The translations under genes were made by a program, and so were the position numbers. A DNA stretch of 64,000 bases from a virus: positions 1 to 64,000 of IMG/VR virus record IMGVR_UViG_3300050035_000086. One strand, 5' to 3'. Below the pieces are notes generated by a model that ran no database searches, was not told the origin of the DNA, and saw only the letters and a program-made list of their open reading frames with translations. This document shows, piece by piece, positions 4,384 through 20,981 of the stretch. Position 1 is the first letter of the stretch. Every line of letters begins with the position of its first letter.

Positions 4384-4710
4384 ATGGCAGAGTCAAGAGC
4401 CAAATCCGGCATGGGTGGAAAGTCCGGAAAGAAATCTTCCAAAAAGTCGGGTCACATTCATGAGACCCATATCCGCCACTACAAGAGCGGCGGGCACGAA
4501 GTAACCCACCACTACAAAGATGACGCCGGAAATATTACCCCAGGTGATCCGGATATGATGGCGGACAAAGCGGCCCTTATGGCACACCTTCAGAATACGA
4601 TTCCCGACAATGGATCAGCGCAAGCAGCCCCCACAGGACCTCCTCAAGCCGCTGATGCCTCCCAACAGCAAGTAGCTCCTTCGCAAGCTCAAGCCCCTCA
4701 AGGTATGTAA
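4384..4710 (+). CDS. Hypothetical protein (basic/His-rich N-terminus)
   Basis: RBS AAAGGA, 108 aa. Confidence 0.65.
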   Translation: MAESRAKSGMGGKSGKKSSKKSGHIHETHIRHYKSGGHEVTHHYKDDAGNITPGDPDMMADKAALMAHLQNTIPDNGSAQAAPTGPPQAADASQQQVAPSQAQAPQGM

Positions 4711-5397
4711 ATGACACTCGCACACAAATTGACGGCAGCGGCGGCAATCGTTCTACTCGTGCTTTTGGTAGTTGGCGGAATTGCGTGGAGACAGGACCAT
4801 AAAGCCCTGTCACAATCTAAGGCGGTTGAATCTGCACAAAAACCAATTATTGCGCAAGCGACTGCTGACAAGGTGGTGACGACCTCCGATCTTACCAAAG
4901 CTCTGGCCGCGATTCAGCAGCAAAGAACCGTAGTAGTTACTGTCCCGCAAGCCGCCGCCGCAATCGCCCAGGCTATTCCAAATCTTCCTCAGCAAGTCCA
5001 AGTTCAAAACGTACCCGCTACGGCAACGACTCCAGAATCCCAAAGCCTAGTCATTCCCCAAGCCGATATTCCGGCCTTTCAAAAATACAAGTTAGATTGC
5101 GATGAATCGAACGCAAAACTACTGGCTTGTGCCAAGAACGCTGTTGATGACAAGACTATCCTAACTGCGACTGAGAAAGAGCGTGATTCTTGGAAACAAA
5201 CTGCCCAAGGCGGAACCTTCTGGACACGTCTCGGATCTGGGTTGAAACACTCAGGGTGCGGAGCGGCGGGAGGGTTGGTTGGCGTAGAAACTGCCCAATC
5301 TAGAAACGCTACTCCAATGACTGGTATTACCGCTGGGGCAGCAACTTTTGGAGGGTGCGAAGTTTTATCTTACTTTTTAGGGAGACGCCACAAATGA
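4711..5397 (+). CDS. Membrane-anchored coiled-coil protein, possible spanin-like
   Basis: N-terminal TM helix then helical Ala/Gln-rich region; adjacent to holin-like ORF. Confidence 0.45.
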   Translation: MTLAHKLTAAAAIVLLVLLVVGGIAWRQDHKALSQSKAVESAQKPIIAQATADKVVTTSDLTKALAAIQQQRTVVVTVPQAAAAIAQAIPNLPQQVQVQNVPATATTPESQSLVIPQADIPAFQKYKLDCDESNAKLLACAKNAVDDKTILTATEKERDSWKQTAQGGTFWTRLGSGLKHSGCGAAGGLVGVETAQSRNATPMTGITAGAATFGGCEVLSYFLGRRHK

Positions 5398-5711
5398 ATG
5401 GTAATTGGGCGGCTGGTTTTTTAAGGTCGCAACTCTCAGACAAAGATGGAACTGTTAGCAACACCCGAGTCCTGTTAGCTCTGGTTGTTAGTCATATACT
5501 AGCTTGGATCAGCGCTCTAGTTTGTCTATACGCTTGGTTTACTTTCAAGACACACACCCCCGTTACGATGACCGATATTGTGACATTTTTGGGGTCTGTT
5601 ACTGTATTCGCTACGTCTCTCTGCGGGACGTTGCAACTCATCAAAACCGGCGGAGACGCCGTTAACAACCGAGCGCCGAATGCTCCTCCTCAGATTCTGC
5701 CGCCCGCATAG
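5394..5711 (+). CDS. Two-TM membrane protein, putative holin
   Basis: Start ATG 5394 overlaps previous stop; two hydrophobic segments after 'SNTRVL'. Confidence 0.5.
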   Translation: MNGNWAAGFLRSQLSDKDGTVSNTRVLLALVVSHILAWISALVCLYAWFTFKTHTPVTMTDIVTFLGSVTVFATSLCGTLQLIKTGGDAVNNRAPNAPPQILPPA

Positions 5712-5720
5712 GAGATTCAA

Positions 5721-5855
5721 ATGAGTTTTGTAATCACAGCAGTAGTTGCTTTTACCGCTGGAGTAGTTCTTACCCTTTTCTACCGTAAACAGGTCGAGAA
5801 GAAGCTCCACGACGAAAAGAACGCAATCCTCGCCGAAGTCAAGAACAAAATCTAA
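5721..5855 (+). CDS. Small single-TM protein (44 aa, not in ORF track)
   Basis: RBS AGGAG; MSFVITAVVAFTAGVVLTLFYRKQVEKKLHDEKNAILAEVKNKI*. Confidence 0.6.
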   Translation: MSFVITAVVAFTAGVVLTLFYRKQVEKKLHDEKNAILAEVKNKI

Positions 5856-5876
5856 TAACCCCTAGAGGGAACTGAT

Positions 5877-6083
5877 TTGACTTTCGAAGTTCTGGAAAGA
5901 CTCAGATTGTTTGTGGGCGGTCACCGGCAAAAATCGTTGATGGCCGCGCAAAATTCTCGGCTTAATGGATACAAGTCAGTTGCCTTAGAGCACGAGAATG
6001 AAGCGGCACTAGCTGCGGTAATTCTTCAAGATTTAGCGAACGAAAAAGGAACTAGTTATGCCAATCCGAAAACCAACTACTAA
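5877..6083 (+). CDS. Hypothetical protein
   Basis: TTG start with GAGGG RBS, fills gap in operon. Confidence 0.45.
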   Translation: MTFEVLERLRLFVGGHRQKSLMAAQNSRLNGYKSVALEHENEAALAAVILQDLANEKGTSYANPKTNY

Positions 6084-6240
6084 AGTTGGGAAGCAGAAAG
6101 CCGTTAAGGGCGTGATGGAAGAATTTAAAGCAGGAAAACTGCACTCAGGGTCCAAGAAAGGACCCAAGATCACAAACCCAAAACAGGCAATCGCTGTGGC
6201 ATTATCCGAGAGCGGACAATCAAAATCCAAAAAGAAGTAA
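6058..6240 (+). CDS. Small basic protein, DUF6496-like
   Basis: VMEEFKAGKLHSGSKKGPKITNPKQAIAVALSE matches the remembered family pattern. Confidence 0.65.
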   Translation: MPIRKPTTKVGKQKAVKGVMEEFKAGKLHSGSKKGPKITNPKQAIAVALSESGQSKSKKK

Positions 6241-6249
6241 GGATCAGTC

Positions 6250-8283
6250 TTGACAGCAAACTACGATGAACTCGTTGATCAGTACCAAACAGCCGATCAG
6301 ATACCAAACAACGTGCTGTATGAGTACCTAGACGAGAATAAACAGAACATAATCAATCTCTCCCAAATAGAGAATATACCAGAATCCAAACTGGGAAGAG
6401 AAGTTCGTCGTCGTTGTGTTTTCGACATCAAGTGGTTGGCTCAGTACTTCCTGTGGGATGCTATGGCCGCTAGTGATGGCGGATTGAAACCTGTTTCCAA
6501 TAACATATTTCTCGACCCCCAGTACGATATCTTTGCTGAATTGTTTGCTAAGAAAGATCCAGCAGTTCCGATTCACAAACTCAGTCCCACCAAGACCAGA
6601 GTTTTGTTGTGGCCAAGAGGCGGAGCCAAAAGCTCGTACGATCACGTGGACACATTTCAGTGGATAATTGCTTACCCTGATGTCCGAATTTTATACCTTA
6701 CAGCAGAATCCAGTTTGTCCATTGGATTCGTCGGCGAGCTTAAAGGTTTCTTTACCCTCCGAGAAGATACTCCCACTCTGTCGAATCTGTTTTTCCCGGA
6801 ACATTGTTGCTTGGCAAAGGACATGAAAAAGGGAACAGTCTTTACGACGCCTGTATATAAGAACAAGAAAACAGGACGTAAAGAACCTACGGTTATCGCC
6901 TCATCGGTAGGAAAAACCAAGAGCGGATACCATTATGAAGTAATCAAATGTGATGACTCTGTGTCCGATAAAAACACTGAGACTGAAACCCAGTGCCAGA
7001 GTGTTTCTGAGAAGTTGTTCTTAGCCGAAAACCTCTTGATTCCGGGCGGAGATGGCTTCCCCATATTCTACATCGGAACTAGGTATCACGATCTCGACCA
7101 CTACGGCGCTCTCCTTGAGAAATATCTAGATAAAGGTGAAGTAGAAATCACCTCAGGAGTAGGCTGGAAGTTCTACCACAACAAGACCTACAGTATTGAT
7201 ATTCTGATCGGCAAAGCCTGCCAGATCAAGCCAGAGGTTGCTGAGAAACTGTCCAGAGAGGGCAGACCAGTCACCTATGCAGAAGCAGGCGAAGCTGGAT
7301 GCGATATTCTCCTCCCCAACATCATGTCGTACTCGTTCTTCATGGGCAAGTTCTCGAAGAATGAAAGAGTCACAGAGGGGCAGCTTAATCAGAATCCCCA
7401 GACTACGAGTGACGTAGAGTTCGACCGAATGTTGATGCTTCGGGCCACAGTTCCCTATCAGATGCTCCCCCGAGAAGGACCCTGCTGCCAGTTTTGGGAT
7501 TTCGCCTTTAGTCAGAAAAAAGGCAGAGACTACTCGACGGGTGCGTCCATTATCTGGACAGAAGAGGATGAACTTACCGCTAAGGGGGAGAAGACGGGGA
7601 ATAAGAAGACGGTTGGGTACGTTCGCAAGATCGTCCGAGACCGCTTCAATCACTCCACCCTCGCCCAAGCCGTAGTTGATCTTGCCGTAGAAGAGCATCC
7701 ATTTGTTATCGGAATTGAAGATGCCGCCGGGTCTCGTTTCTTGGAGCCTACAATTATTTCTACAGCACTCCGAACAAAAGATGCTCGCGTAATTGAGTTG
7801 TGCTCTCATATCGATTGGGTTACTCCGGACAACCAGATAGATGCCAAGCGGGTAAGAATGCGGTCGATGTATCCTTGGATTTCCGAGGGAAGACTCAAGT
7901 TCCTGAATGCCTGCATGGCTCCCAAAGAGTCCAATTTGGAAGTTTTCTATTCCGAATGGCAGAAATGTTTAGTAAGCCATCACCATGATGATATCCCAGA
8001 CGTTGTATCTCAGATGCCCAACCGATACGCTCCTCGGGCCACCCAAGCCATAGTCGAAAACAACGTTGAGATGTTCTCCCGCATAGATCAAATAGGCTGG
8101 AACGAACTCTTCAATGAAGATTACATGGCACAGAACGGCTCGTGGATGGACGACAACGGAAACATCATAAACCAAGAACAGCCAATTATGCCGACAGCCG
8201 ATCTATTCCAACCAGAACCAGAAGCATCAACTCAAACGCCCTATGGGATGCCAAACGTCCTCGGGGCTGGGTTTTGGGGGTAG
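6250..8283 (+). CDS. terL: Terminase large subunit
   Basis: Walker A-like PRGGAKSS, Walker B IKCDD, IGTRY coupling motif, RNase H-like nuclease WDFAFS...HDDIPD. Confidence 0.9.
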   Translation: MTANYDELVDQYQTADQIPNNVLYEYLDENKQNIINLSQIENIPESKLGREVRRRCVFDIKWLAQYFLWDAMAASDGGLKPVSNNIFLDPQYDIFAELFAKKDPAVPIHKLSPTKTRVLLWPRGGAKSSYDHVDTFQWIIAYPDVRILYLTAESSLSIGFVGELKGFFTLREDTPTLSNLFFPEHCCLAKDMKKGTVFTTPVYKNKKTGRKEPTVIASSVGKTKSGYHYEVIKCDDSVSDKNTETETQCQSVSEKLFLAENLLIPGGDGFPIFYIGTRYHDLDHYGALLEKYLDKGEVEITSGVGWKFYHNKTYSIDILIGKACQIKPEVAEKLSREGRPVTYAEAGEAGCDILLPNIMSYSFFMGKFSKNERVTEGQLNQNPQTTSDVEFDRMLMLRATVPYQMLPREGPCCQFWDFAFSQKKGRDYSTGASIIWTEEDELTAKGEKTGNKKTVGYVRKIVRDRFNHSTLAQAVVDLAVEEHPFVIGIEDAAGSRFLEPTIISTALRTKDARVIELCSHIDWVTPDNQIDAKRVRMRSMYPWISEGRLKFLNACMAPKESNLEVFYSEWQKCLVSHHHDDIPDVVSQMPNRYAPRATQAIVENNVEMFSRIDQIGWNELFNEDYMAQNGSWMDDNGNIINQEQPIMPTADLFQPEPEASTQTPYGMPNVLGAGFWG

Positions 8284-17673: not shown

Positions 17674-20316
17674 ATGAGTTACTCACCAGCATCAATCGTG
17701 ACTTCGGGCGCATTGCCCAACCTCGTAGCTATTCACTAAAATCTTGGTGAATTCAAACTGTTCTAAATCGGCGAAAATCTTCTTGACAAGGTCTGCTAGG
17801 TGTGGTAGACTATAGTTATCGAATAAAGAAAACGCCGAGGAAACCGTGAAAGAGAAAACCAAAAGTTATATGGCTGGGATTCTAGATGCAGAAGGTTGCC
17901 TCCGAATCGCCACCCACAAACGAGGCAACAAAACCTACTACGAACCCAAGGTCTATTTGAGTAACAAATCAAAGGCCGTGATGCAGTGGTCGGTCCTACA
18001 TTTCGGGGGAAGTTTCGTCCGAAATGTAAACAACAAAGCAGGGGAAGATTGGTTCATTTGGTATCTTCAATCATTTCCCACCGTTGTTAGTTTCCTCAAA
18101 ACTATTCTGCCCTACTTGAAGTACAAGAGGGAGCAAGCTGAAACTCTTATTGAGTTCATTGAGAACAGAGAAAATCTGTCCGACAACCAAAAGAACGAGT
18201 ATGTTCTGAAACTCAAAGAGATGAAGCAACACGGGTCCGTAACGACTGAAACGAACAGCAGCTATCTAAAAGCAGAACCAGCATACCTAGCCGGATTCTT
18301 TGATGGCAAAGGTTGTGTTCGGGTCAATAAGACTCCGATGAAAAACACAACCGCCTACCATCTAATTGTATCTATTGCCAACAACGACCGATCTGTTTTA
18401 GATTCTTGTAAAGAACTCTATGGCGGAGATGTCAGAGCCAAAGGGAAAAGAAATTGCTTCTCTTGGAGTTTATTCTCCAAAGCAAGCATTGAAAAATTCC
18501 TCGTGGATAGCCTTCCGTATCTTGTAGTTAAAAGAGACGAGGCGTTGGCGGCACTAGAATACGTTCAACTAAGACGAGCACAATGCCCAGCAAAACGCGA
18601 AGCCTTGTATCTTCGGTTGATAGCTTTAAAGAAGCTGAAGACACAGTCTGAACTGCATAGTGATATGCAGAGCGCCCCAGCAGAGATGCTGACGGCCTAA
18701 AACACACTGATGAACGTGAAGCAATTCCTAACCTGAAGGCACAAACTCCCTTCCTCAGCATGACGAAGCAGCGTCCGCTGCCCCTCCGTCAGGGAAACCA
18801 AATTCAGTGAACAATATTGCTGAATCCAAATCCGGCTATATCGGTGGACAACTCTCTGAGTCAATACCGAGGGAAGACTGGGAAACCAGAACCCGTAGAG
18901 GCTAATACGCCGGACAGTCCATTATTTGGACTGAAGATAGAGTCCGAGCTATGGGGTGACCTATAGAGCGACCTTGTGGTGACGCAAGAGAGGCGAAAGC
19001 CTAGTGACCCGAAAGGGCATTTCCAAAACAAGACTGTCTTCACCTACGCTCTGCTTGCCGCTAACCTTAATCAGGCTGCGGAAGGCACAGTCGGATCTCC
19101 TATCAGTGAATCCAGCAATAAAATTGTCGCGACCATCGGGCAATATGCTGATTTCATTAATAGTTCCGACCTTGCCCTGGACGTTGCAATTGACGACCCG
19201 GGTCTCCTTCAGAACTTGGCAAACGAACTGAACTACCGCTTGGCTCTCACCCTCAACTCCCTCGTCCAGCTTACCGCTGACTCGGCTGTTGCGGTCGATA
19301 GCTTGGTAAACATCCAGCTTGCAAACGGCTCGTATCTGACTGCGAATAACATCCGGTCTGCTGCTCAGTCGCTGGTAAGCGTTAACGCTCGTCCTCTCGT
19401 GGACAACAAATTTGGTGGAATCATTCACCCTAATGTAGTCCGCGACGTGCTGAACGACACCTCCTTTAATGGTCTGACCGACATTATCAAGAGGTCTGAG
19501 GAAATGCGCAACATGCTGTTTGAACTGCCTAAGAATGAGGATACCATCTCGTTCGCCGGGGTCACGTTCAAACAGACATCCACTGCCCCCACTGTAACAA
19601 TCTCCGGAAATACCTATGGACTTGAAAGTCTAGTAGCCTGAAGAAGTAATTCTTCTTGAATCACGTCGCTAATTCGGTGGACATCTCTCAGAGACAATAC
19701 CGAGCCAAACCCAAGAAATTGGGAAGTGTGTAGAGAGCATAGACGACGCTCCTGAAAAGGATGATGATGTGCTCCGGCCTGTATGGCGACATACAGAGAC
19801 TGATAGAAATACTCAGTCCCGTCCAGATACTGGACGAGTAACAAAAGCGTACAATAGTTATATTTTCGGCGATGACGCAATCTTCTCCGTCTTCCTGGGG
19901 AAGAATCCAAACGATGGATCGAAGAACTATCAAATGGTAGCTTAGGGGAGTAATTCCCTTCGAACACACCGCTAATTCAGGGAACAACTCTTCGGAGTCA
20001 ATCCTGAGCGAAGCCCGAAAGGGAACGTGCAGAGGCCATACACGGTGCCCCTCGAAAGAGGGTGATGAGATGGTCCGCTCTATACGGCGACGTATAGAGG
20101 TGGGCGGAACAAGAAACGACCCACCCTTGTCCAAATAATGGACATGTAACACAGAGGAAATTGTTCATACAGTCCGCGCCAGAACAAGGCAGCGTGAGTG
20201 ATCCGGCCCGTCAAATCGGCGGGTGGGTCAGTTACAACGTGAGGTATACCAATACTTTGCGTCCGGGCTCGACAATGACGCTTCGTCGTTTGCAGTCGGA
20301 AACATCATCCAGCTAA
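17674..20316 (+). CDS. Major capsid protein, spliced: join(17674-17737,18710-18808,19037-19617,19850-19930,20158-20316), 327 aa
   Basis: Exons sum to 984 nt in frame: MSYSPASIVTSGALPNLVAIH-Y-EREAIPNLKAQTPFLSMTKQRPLPLRQGNQIQ-F-FTYALL...QYADFINSSD...IIHPNVVRDV...SGNTY-YNSYIFGDDAIFSVFLG...KNY-KLFIQ...DPARQIGGWVSY...SETSSS*; resembles N4-gp56-like capsid proteins; RBS AAAGGAG. Confidence 0.88.
17783..17811 (+). promoter_or_regulatory. Intron-internal sigma70 promoter for the endonuclease ORF
   Basis: TTGACA-17 bp-TAGACT with TG extension, 35 nt upstream of GTG 17846. Confidence 0.7.
17846..18700 (+). CDS. Intron-encoded double-motif LAGLIDADG homing endonuclease/maturase
   Basis: Motifs YMAGILDAEG and YLAGFFDGKG, each followed by 'LPYLxxKREQA/KRDEA' helices. 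Confidence 0.88.
   Translation: MKEKTKSYMAGILDAEGCLRIATHKRGNKTYYEPKVYLSNKSKAVMQWSVLHFGGSFVRNVNNKAGEDWFIWYLQSFPTVVSFLKTILPYLKYKREQAETLIEFIENRENLSDNQKNEYVLKLKEMKQHGSVTTETNSSYLKAEPAYLAGFFDGKGCVRVNKTPMKNTTAYHLIVSIANNDRSVLDSCKELYGGDVRAKGKRNCFSWSLFSKASIEKFLVDSLPYLVVKRDEALAALEYVQLRRAQCPAKREALYLRLIALKKLKTQSELHSDMQSAPAEMLTA
18809..19036 (+). mobile_element. Group I intron 2 (228 nt, ORF-less)
   Basis: P1 ATTCAGT/GCTGAAT U-G; P3 CCGGC/GCCGG; J8/7-P7 GAAGATAGAGTCC; terminal G19036; removal restores QIQ-F-FTY. Confidence 0.88.
19618..19849 (+). mobile_element. Group I intron 3 (232 nt, ORF-less)
   Basis: Exon ends CTAT pairing with GTAG; P3 CGTCG/CGACG; P7 GAGCA/TGCTC; P8 TCCT-gaaa-AGGA; terminal G19849. 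Confidence 0.83.
19931..20157 (+). mobile_element. Group I intron 4 (227 nt, ORF-less)
   Basis: Exon ends CTAT pairing with GTAG; P3 CACCG/CGGTG; P7 GGCCA/TGGTC; P8 CCCTC-gaaa-GAGGG; terminal G20157; similar to intron 3. Confidence 0.83.
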
Positions 20317-20447: not shown

Positions 20448-20981
20448 ATGAAAACCAAAGTTTGCAAGAAGTGTGGAATAGAGAAATCAGTAGAAGAGTT
20501 TGGTAAAAAGCTGTCGGGATGGACTGCCTTGTGTTTAGATTGCACGCGGCGGAGAGATAGAGAACGATATGCGGCCAATCACGAGGAAATTAGGGAAGTG
20601 CAAAATGAGTACTACTCTAAGAACTCGGCAAAGATAATGGCGCAGATGAAGCAGGCACTAAAGAATCACCCGGAAAGAGGTCTTCTTAGGTTAGCTCAAC
20701 GTCGCTGCAAGAAGTCGGGGGTTGTTTGCACGATAACTGAGAAAGATATTGTAGTTCCGGAGTTTTGCCCCATCCTGGGTTTGAAGTTAGAATTTGGGGA
20801 AATGGATAACCGAAACAACTCTCCGAGCCTGGACCGCATAATCCCCGAACTAGGGTACGTCCCGGGAAACGTTGCTGTAATCTCGTATAGAGCCAATCGA
20901 ATCAAAAACGAAGGTCTAGCAGAAGAGCACCGCAAGATAGCCGACTGGATGGACGCCCAAAAGGAACTCACCAATGCCTAA
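20448..20981 (+). CDS. Free-standing HNH-type homing endonuclease
   Basis: N-terminal CKKC...CLDC zinc motif; CPILG...SPSLDRIIPELGYVPGNVAVISYRANRIKN. Confidence 0.8.
   Translation: MKTKVCKKCGIEKSVEEFGKKLSGWTALCLDCTRRRDRERYAANHEEIREVQNEYYSKNSAKIMAQMKQALKNHPERGLLRLAQRRCKKSGVVCTITEKDIVVPEFCPILGLKLEFGEMDNRNNSPSLDRIIPELGYVPGNVAVISYRANRIKNEGLAEEHRKIADWMDAQKELTNA

Follow-up and report, generated by a model that had tools for sequence, protein, structure and literature searches.

Within the first 64,000 nucleotides (nt) of the IMG/VR virus record IMGVR_UViG_3300050035_000086 (this whole stretch is "the window" below), positions 17674-20316 are a phage major capsid (head) protein gene that is interrupted by four group I introns. 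The first of these, intron 1, contains an open reading frame (ORF) for a LAGLIDADG homing endonuclease. We argue that intron 1 is very likely a mobile group I intron whose single-chain endonuclease gene is interleaved with its ribozyme: the ribozyme's core encodes the linker between the two protein domains as well as a disordered tail, the system would be expressed from two RNAs, and the domain in loop L8 was most likely gained in frame.

The endonuclease ORF runs through the ribozyme core

Intron 1 contains all of the helices of a group I core, namely P3-P4-P6 and P7-P3'-P8 with the P3/P7 pseudoknot (Table 1). At the 5' splice site, U17737 and G17746 form the U.G pair of P1, and the last base of the intron is a G (G18709). 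The ORF begins with GTG in the P6 extension, as the initial annotation had claimed, and each element that it named was found in its place. The GAGG ribosome-binding site straddles P4' and P6, and all of the relatives have a start codon (GTG or ATG) at the same place in P6. Strands of P6, P6', P7, P3', P8, P8', P7', P9, and P9.1 all lie within 17846-18697. The final 22 codons traverse P8', J8/7, P7', P9, and P9.1, which matches the annotated course of the C-terminus through P7' and P9. The stop codon (18698-18700) is inside the intron, 9 nt before G18709. Overlap between an endonuclease ORF and a ribozyme core is known and has been named "core creep" (PMC3073962). When folded alone, the P4-P5 domain and the P9-P9.1 region each form as predicted (both z = -3.5).

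Related introns were gathered by protein and DNA-pattern searches in IMG/VR, along with metagenome loci; relatives have L numbers. (The metagenome scan used a protein alignment keyed on the generic LAGLIDADG motif, and it returned mostly distant proteins.) At the insertion site of intron 1 (site 1), the orthologs are L002 (79% protein identity), L008 (76%), and L206. Members at the insertion site of intron 2 (site 2) are intron iA of L029 (35% protein identity) and L181, and L217 is a further intron with the same threaded layout. We aligned seven full-length threaded introns (alignment A3) and scored the named helices on 52 pairs.

In this alignment, 92.8% of cells are paired, as compared to 30-39% if the partner strand is slid by 1-3 columns. 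Both sides have changed in 25 of the 52 pairs, as compared to 2-8 in the slid controls, and none of 500 shuffles reached the observed values. The double changes in P3 and P8 span about 500 and 400 nt of coding sequence, respectively. P3 is found as CUGUUC/GAACAG, UCUAGC/GCUAGA, or UUUAGC/GCUAAA, and P8 is found as CAGCU/AGCUG, CAGUU/AACUG, CAAUU/AGUUG, CGAUU/AAUUG, or UGCUC/GAGCA. For instance, the two changes in P8 between the window and L002 are 375 nt apart, and both are synonymous in the ORF. Also, a C-G pair in P1 becomes G-C in the site-2 relatives, and a C-G pair in P4 becomes U-A in relatives. P6b and P8b score low because MAFFT put these strands out of register in the distant members; by eye, they pair in each lineage.

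We measured divergence between the window and the three site-1 orthologs. At third codon positions, it is 0.31-0.56 in both of the domain-coding loops, as compared to 0.09-0.18 for the linker that the core encodes and 0.05-0.27 for the tail. Positions 18230-18263 have just 2-3 differences in 34 nt from the three relatives, as compared to 18-33% in the domain-coding loops. Even at 33-35% identity, no part of the protein is as well conserved as the peptides GSVTTE(T/M) and K-x-Q-S-E-L. The shared bases are under double selection, as RNA helices and as codons. The proposal that domain 1 lies in L6 and domain 2 in L8, with core RNA as the linker, is supported by the covariation, by the constraint on synonymous sites, and by the modeled protein (see below).

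Generic covariance models have little to say about this core. With two inserts of ~370-380 nt, intron 1 is beyond what Rfam's model can align. The model gives nothing on the 5' part of the intron, whether run on the whole or in pieces, and it cannot place P3 and P7 either way. We also used nhmmer with a profile of J6/7-P7-J7/3 that was trained only on non-threaded relatives. It has a single match in intron 1, at 18235-18251 (E = 0.05), which is supportive but not decisive.

The Rfam match at 18799-18966 lies outside the ORF, and one might ask if it is the only real ribozyme, with 17738-19036 being one long intron that carries the ORF in a 5' extension. This would explain why, in this stretch, Rfam's gathering score is passed only at 18799-18966, while intron 1 reaches 28.6 bits. 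But 18710-18808 encodes conserved capsid residues (NLKAQTPF..), RNA contigs retain these positions between two joints, L029 has an empty site 1 plus a separate intron at site 2, and covariation backs a full core within 17738-18709. We consider the single long intron to be refuted already and give it practically no weight. The match belongs to the neighboring intron 2. Because this is a separate intron, with a coding exon between it and intron 1, it does not contradict the placement of P3 and P7 within the ORF.

Splicing of intron 1

The splice sites of intron 1 are between 17737 and 17738 and between G18709 and 18710. Its P1 (AUUCACU/..GGUGAAU, where the slash marks the splice site) mirrors the P1 of intron 2 (AUUCAGU/..GCUGAAU). 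In the relative L029, site 1 is empty, and the sequence ..GCTATTCACT/ATGAACGTG.. corresponds to 17737 joined exactly to 18710 (the intron-less allele reads ..ATTCACT/ATGAACG..). At the other end of the intron, L002 has a 1-nt deletion near 18699, which implies that this stretch is not exonic.

Metatranscriptome contigs from peat (three runs from one study) join 17737 to 18710. RNA contigs also have a joint between 18808 and 19039 that contains two extra letters, equivalent to the removal of intron 2 plus a variant base. In a 640-nt RNA contig, exons 1, 2, and 3 are joined. The parallel DNA run contains neither the 17737/18710 joint nor the 18808/19039 joint. These contigs support splicing at 17737/18710, which they do not prove.

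RNA contigs that bear intron 1 were seen in runs X5 and X14. They start at 17739 and 17741, or 2-4 nt past the 5' splice site, and one of them is preceded by a remnant of an adapter. Such starts would fit the excised intron or an intermediate of intron and 3' exon, although contigs cannot prove the ends of RNAs.

A two-domain endonuclease

The protein contains two LAGLIDADG motifs, YMAGILDAEG (residues 8-17) and YLAGFFDGKG (residues 147-156), and matches PF00961 in Pfam (40.8 bits, versus a cut-off of 23.1). An AlphaFold (AF2) model has a predicted local distance difference test score (pLDDT) of 83 and a predicted template modeling score (pTM) of 0.82. It has two alpha-beta-beta-alpha-beta-beta-alpha domains, the first of which is formed by residues 3-128. 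By its motifs, its Pfam match, and its modeled secondary structure, this is a single-chain LAGLIDADG protein. pLDDT is below 50 only at residues 133-139 and 266-284, which are the parts encoded by P7/P3'/P8 and by P7'/P9/P9.1. The helices of the ribozyme, the two domains of the protein, and the splice junction can be taken as established.

Foldseek matches the model to LAGLIDADG enzymes with E values from 1e-13 to 4e-17. The best matches are engineered single-chain forms of two homodimeric enzymes, I-MsoI (3fd2) and I-CreI (3mxa and 3mx9), followed by I-OnuI-type enzymes and I-AniI. By sequence, the nearest proteins in the PDB are I-MsoI, I-CreI, and I-CvuI. The two domains of one protein are close paralogs (59-77 bits). 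The halves of natural double-motif enzymes are usually far more diverged.

Motif 1 has the metal-binding acid (Glu16), while motif 2 of this copy has Lys155 instead (AAA at 18308-18310, within FFDGKG). All of the relatives have Glu or Asp at this position. For instance, the 96% identical P0001 and the strain from the RNA run have Glu (G at 18308). Lys155 is a single transition that is seen only in this assembly and in its likely source sample.

Given Lys155, this copy's protein might no longer be a double-strand homing nuclease, but rather a nickase, or else an RNA maturase that helps an insert-laden ribozyme to fold. LAGLIDADG maturases are known, such as the protein from the 23S rRNA intron of Thermotoga neapolitana (PMC3984707), and I-AniI (1p8k), which is both an endonuclease and a splicing factor, is among the fold matches. 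We think that this is somewhat unlikely, as a substitution that is confined to one assembly and its likely source sample may be recent and either neutral or deleterious. If the protein does cleave DNA, then the intron-less site of L029 is a candidate target.

The lost acid in motif 2 also raises the question of whether intron 1 is decaying. It might not splice, its core-like strands might be relics, and the ORF might behave as a free-standing gene; splicing of intron 1 is, after all, predicted only. However, the capsid gene is essential and requires the exact 17737/18710 junction. Also, the helices are all intact and covary, synonymous sites in the core-coded parts are constrained among four site-1 orthologs, and the 96% identical copy retains the Glu. 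We consider decay to be very improbable.

A putative promoter in L5 and proposed expression from two RNAs

The initial annotation reported a sigma-70 promoter in the loop closed by P4. The sequence TTGACA-N17-TAGACT at 17783-17811 does match the consensus, at 10 of 12 positions. A promoter scan is not significant by itself (4 sites found versus 2.2 expected), so the support for this promoter comes from its conservation in relatives, not from the scan. Five of the 7 aligned introns retain TTGACA and GGTGTGGTA (the TGTGGTA block), which are also found in introns iB and iD of L029. The remainder of L5 is ~40% different from the window in the three closest relatives.

In the threaded site-2 intron of L029 (1990-2075 of that locus), the -35 element TTGACA can pair with TGTCAA 35 nt downstream. 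There, the promoter's DNA would double as a P5-extension helix in the RNA.

From this anatomy, translation and folding would be expected to conflict: the Shine-Dalgarno sequence and the start codon are paired in P4' and P6 of the folded precursor. Also, a ribosome would need to open P6', P7, P3', P8, P8', P7', P9, and P9.1. We propose that the conflict is solved by making two RNAs. In the long capsid pre-mRNA, the ribozyme would fold, the ribosome-binding site and the start codon would be hidden in P4' and P6, and the intron would splice. The L5 promoter would also give rise to a shorter RNA, which would be the one that is translated into the nuclease. This transcript would lack P1 and the 5' strands of P3 and P4, so that no ribozyme could fold and the ribosome-binding site would be free. 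In contrast to what had been suggested initially, translation and splicing would then not compete on one molecule.

Distribution and origin of the threaded layout

The capsid genes of relatives contain simpler forms of the intron. In L029, a threaded intron occupies site 2, and three more introns of its capsid gene have, respectively, both domains in L6, no ORF, and one domain in L6. Other forms with a single domain in L6 are found in L014, L017, L041, and L217, and other tandem forms in L6 are found in L009 and L183. In both the single and the tandem forms, the frame runs on, in the same phase, through P6'-P7-P3', a short P8, and P7', and at least into P9 (for example, ..KPVETNTPDPSEKWTAKIESEL.. 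and ..ISLTTNTVACPDNGQMIESDL..). Since the frame is already open through the core in these simpler forms, L8 is already translated in them.

L217 has two endonuclease-bearing introns close together, at ~4600-5200 and 5357-6348. The first has a single-domain ORF in L6 that continues through the core. The second is threaded, and its ORF stops in P8' (..KSLQ*), short of P9.

The initial annotation proposed that two single-domain insertions in different loops had been fused. Our survey of homologous introns supports this in part: it found five forms with a single domain, in L6 only, as well as several tandem forms in L6. The other half of the proposal was not borne out. Among 221 loci, there was no member with a domain in L8 only, which is weak evidence of absence, as these were regular-expression scans and the second scan was noisy. 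We also considered L089 (39% identity to domain 2), and rejected it as an L8-only form, since this single-domain gene is free-standing and has no core of an intron in its vicinity.

In an unrooted tree of the domains, all 11 of the L8 domains lie on one side of a branch (support 74/85) and all of the L6 domains lie on the other side. This branch is present in 73% of bootstrap trees, and there seems to be some congruence between the two subtrees. The tree is compatible with a threaded layout that was founded once and later diverged at length and spread to several sites. The tree cannot separate the arrival of an independent gene in L8 from the in-frame copying or insertion of a domain into an L8 that was already translated.

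Independent single-domain genes that invaded L6 and L8, and were later joined through the core, would account for the branch between L8 and L6 domains and for the existence of single-domain forms in L6. An ORF with a single motif that runs from P6 to P9 is also known, in the L1917 intron of Synechococcus C9 (PMC1995217). But given that the frame is open through L8 in the L6 forms, one in-frame insertion or copy would suffice. The two domains are close paralogs, and an L8-only form is absent from the 221 loci. We view the joining of independent genes as unlikely. The most likely origin, judging from these comparisons, is the gain of a second domain, in frame, in L8 of an intron with an ORF in L6. 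At the start, core creep would already have carried the frame of a single-domain gene in L6 through the entire 3' half of the intron's ribozyme. An in-frame second domain would then have entered L8, which would have turned a homodimeric enzyme similar to I-CreI or I-MsoI into a single chain.

More speculatively, the open frame may have been kept as a scaffold that acquires domains loop by loop. The forms with a single domain in L6, a tandem in L6, and domains in L6 and L8 would be living intermediates, and the L5 promoter would split a splicing precursor from a ribozyme-dead nuclease mRNA. We consider this idea to be somewhat less likely than not. If true, the ribozyme core would be a protein linker that is fixed by selection on RNA, and translation and splicing would be separated by the identity of the transcript.

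To see how far the layout has spread, we used protein sequences as a proxy; the RNA level was checked only at the loci that we examined, which are the L-numbered relatives. An exhaustive protein search gave 9,099 matches with E values of at most 1e-3, of which 450 reach 1e-10 and 28 reach 1e-30. A core-type peptide immediately precedes motif 2 in at least 36 of the best 150 cluster representatives (clustered at 50% identity), and in 6 of the representatives, core and tail peptides come after two motifs. Judging by these proteins, the threaded layout is widespread in the capsid genes of soil and peat phages.

Several points weigh against the view of intron 1 as a mobile intron with an interleaved single-chain gene. 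Self-splicing of intron 1 is a prediction. The RNA contigs are only 90-97% similar to the window, so they come from near relatives, and the same DNA run has an intron-less site-1 allele from a relative; the joints in the RNA could belong to intron-less DNA alleles from the same habitat. Rfam's score for intron 1 arises from a spurious alignment (18395-18670) and is below the 50-bit gathering threshold. The L5 promoter is putative, being a consensus match only. It is absent from L181, L217, and L183, so it is not obligatory for the intron family. The nuclease of this copy may be crippled by Lys155. And the order of events in the proposed origin rests on an unrooted tree with weak support (74/85).

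The capsid gene and its other introns

The pieces of the capsid gene are ~40% identical to the major head protein of Tunturiibacter phage Tunturi_3 (by tblastn). If the exons are joined, they form an open frame of 322 codons, and residues 1-322 of the spliced product align to residues 1-343 of the Tunturi_3 protein with 38% identity (E = 5e-65). The parent record in IMG/VR is 92,952 bp, with an estimated completeness of 86%. Peat metagenomes contain DNA that is nearly identical to the window; among deposited phages, we found no megablast match to the region.

The set of introns varies among relatives, with at least 6 or 7 insertion sites across this family of capsid genes. Intron 3 is absent from L002-L007. 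L029 lacks intron 1 and has four others, one at site 2 and three elsewhere in the gene; its site 2, which is occupied by the threaded endonuclease intron, is at the same position as intron 2 of the window. L009 has an intron at yet another site, near the 5' end. Introns 1 and 2 are both preceded by ATTCA(C/G)T, and introns 3 and 4, with only 81 nt between them, are both preceded by the exon letters CTAT. This suggests that introns spread between sites that match their guide sequences.

About 130 nt past the stop codon of the capsid gene, there is an ORF of 177 codons (20448-20981) with CxxC pairs and an HNH-like-looking stretch (..SLDRIIPELGYVPGNVAVISYRANRIKN..). It has no match in Pfam with E up to 0.01. 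A TTGCAT..TATAAT-like site lies upstream. This ORF may be a free-standing nuclease that mobilizes the introns that lack ORFs. Near the start of the window, at 173-1202, Rfam identifies a cluster of nine tRNA genes.

Table 1. Elements of intron 1 and the exons and introns of the capsid gene, in window coordinates
Feature	Position	Strand	Details
Intron 1, group I with LAGLIDADG ORF	17738-18709	+	972 nt; P1, terminal G18709, empty site of L029
LAGLIDADG homing endonuclease ORF	17846-18700	+	GTG start, 284 amino acids plus stop
P1	AUUCACU 17731-37 (exon end) / GGUGAAU 17746-52 (internal guide)	+	Loop 17738-45; 7/7 pairs
P3	CUGUUC 17758-63 / GAACAG 18253-58	+	Double changes in 5/6 pairs
P4	UCGGCG 17768-73 / CGCCGA 17833-38	+	17768-17838 encloses P5 and its extension
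Sigma-70-like promoter, TTGACA-N17-TAGACT with TG before -10 (putative)	17783-17811	+	In the P5 extension, inside P4
Shine-Dalgarno GAGG and GTG start	17837-40 and 17846-48	+	In P4'/P6 5' strands; predicted from sequence
P6a	GGA 17839-41 / UCC 18236-38	+	GCA/UGC in relatives
P6 (P6b)	CCGUG 17844-48 / CACGG 18230-34	+	Differs by lineage, yet pairs in each
Domain 1 coding, L6 insert closed by P6	17849-18229	+	Residues 1-128
P6'-J6/7-P7-J7/3-P3'-P8 5', linker HGSVTTETNSS	18230-18263	+	Residues 129-139
P7	GACUG 18244-48 / CAGUC 18644-48		
P8	CAGCU 18259-63 / AGCUG 18633-37	+	Double changes in 5/5 pairs
Domain 2 coding, L8 insert closed by P8	18264-18632	+	PF00961 at residues 148-219
P8'-J8/7-P7'-P9-P9.1, C-terminal tail ..LKTQSELHSDMQSAPAEMLTA	18633-18697	+	Covariation, fold, low pLDDT
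P9	18653-59 / 18664-70	+	Covariation in 5/7 pairs
P9.1	18678-81 / 18688-91	+	Covariation in 4/4 pairs
Capsid exon 1	17674-17737	+	64 nt; MSYSPASIVTSGALPNLVAIH plus first base of a Tyr codon; tblastn, spliced model
Capsid exon 2 (..EREAIPNLKAQTPFLSMTKQRPLPLRQGNQIQ)	18710-18808	+	99 nt; Tunturi_3 match, spliced model
Intron 2, group I, no ORF	18809-19036	+	228 nt; Rfam 18799-18966, 51 bits
Capsid exon 3	19037-19617		581 nt
Intron 3, group I, no ORF	19618-19849	+	232 nt; Rfam 38.3 bits (19614-19796, sub-threshold)
Capsid exon 4	19850-19930		81 nt
Intron 4, group I, no ORF	19931-20172	+	242 nt; Rfam 63.8 bits (19921-20097); fits spliced model
Capsid exon 5	20173-20316		144 nt, including the stop codon

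Comparison with known systems

Intron 1 is an extreme case of overlap between an ORF and a ribozyme core: ~100 nt of catalytic RNA double as the linker and the tail of a two-domain enzyme of a working type. The phage introns that share this layout form a large and diverse family. This makes it a natural system for studying how one sequence meets the constraints of RNA and protein together, and how translation and ribozyme folding avoid colliding. It also bears on how monomeric LAGLIDADG enzymes with two motifs arose from homodimers, as single, tandem, and threaded forms are found in the same capsid genes. There is a practical consequence as well: because generic covariance models miss such introns, gene callers can be expected to report broken capsid genes and "free-standing" endonucleases.

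Self-splicing introns are reportedly present in the capsid genes of other tailed phages, the Cluster J mycobacteriophages. Here, four introns interrupt one capsid gene, and relatives vary at 6 or more sites.

The closest known cases are the L1917 and L1931 introns of Synechococcus sp. C9 and S. lividus C1, in which, as here, nucleotides of the ribozyme core are also part of the reading frame. In the 23S rRNA intron L1917 of Synechococcus sp. C9, a LAGLIDADG ORF runs from P6 through P7, P3, and P8, and stops in P9 (Haugen et al. 2007, PMC1995217). In the 23S rRNA intron of S. lividus C1, the overlap is 81 nt and the insertion site is P8 (Table 1 of Edgell, Chalamcharla & Belfort 2011, PMC3073962). 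The Synechococcus ORFs have a single motif and are placed in peripheral regions by the original paper (PMC1995217), whereas intron 1 has a full domain on each side of the core. Also, the Synechococcus introns interrupt rRNA genes, while intron 1 interrupts a phage capsid gene and uses its core to encode the linker between the domains of a single-chain enzyme.

In the td intron of phage T4, the ORF for I-TevI is in the P6 loop, its 3' end is part of P6a/P7, and the ribosome-binding site is sequestered by RNA structure (PMC3073962). I-TevI is a GIY-YIG enzyme, and the overlap with the core is 20 nt, at one end only. In intron 1, the translated part of the core and P9 region amounts to ~100 nt, split into two blocks with an entire domain between them. 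The same review treats the consequences of translating an ORF within a structured ribozyme (PMC3073962). The expression from two RNAs that we propose would resemble, in its logic, the separate control of I-TevI in td, and the read-through tails of these introns are consistent with ORFs that extended into the core as stop codons were lost (PMC3073962).

Engineered single-chain meganucleases (mMsoI, 3fd2, and I-CreI, 3mxa/3mx9) also consist of two domains and a flexible linker, with 16-19% sequence identity to the protein from intron 1. Their linkers were designed, while this one is dictated by P7, P3, and P8 of a ribozyme. In the literature that we covered, which is incomplete, we found no description of a two-domain enzyme whose domains are divided between L6 and L8. 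Intron 1 extends the known overlap between ORFs and ribozyme cores and is not a wholly new phenomenon; what appears to be new is the two-domain layout across L6 and L8.

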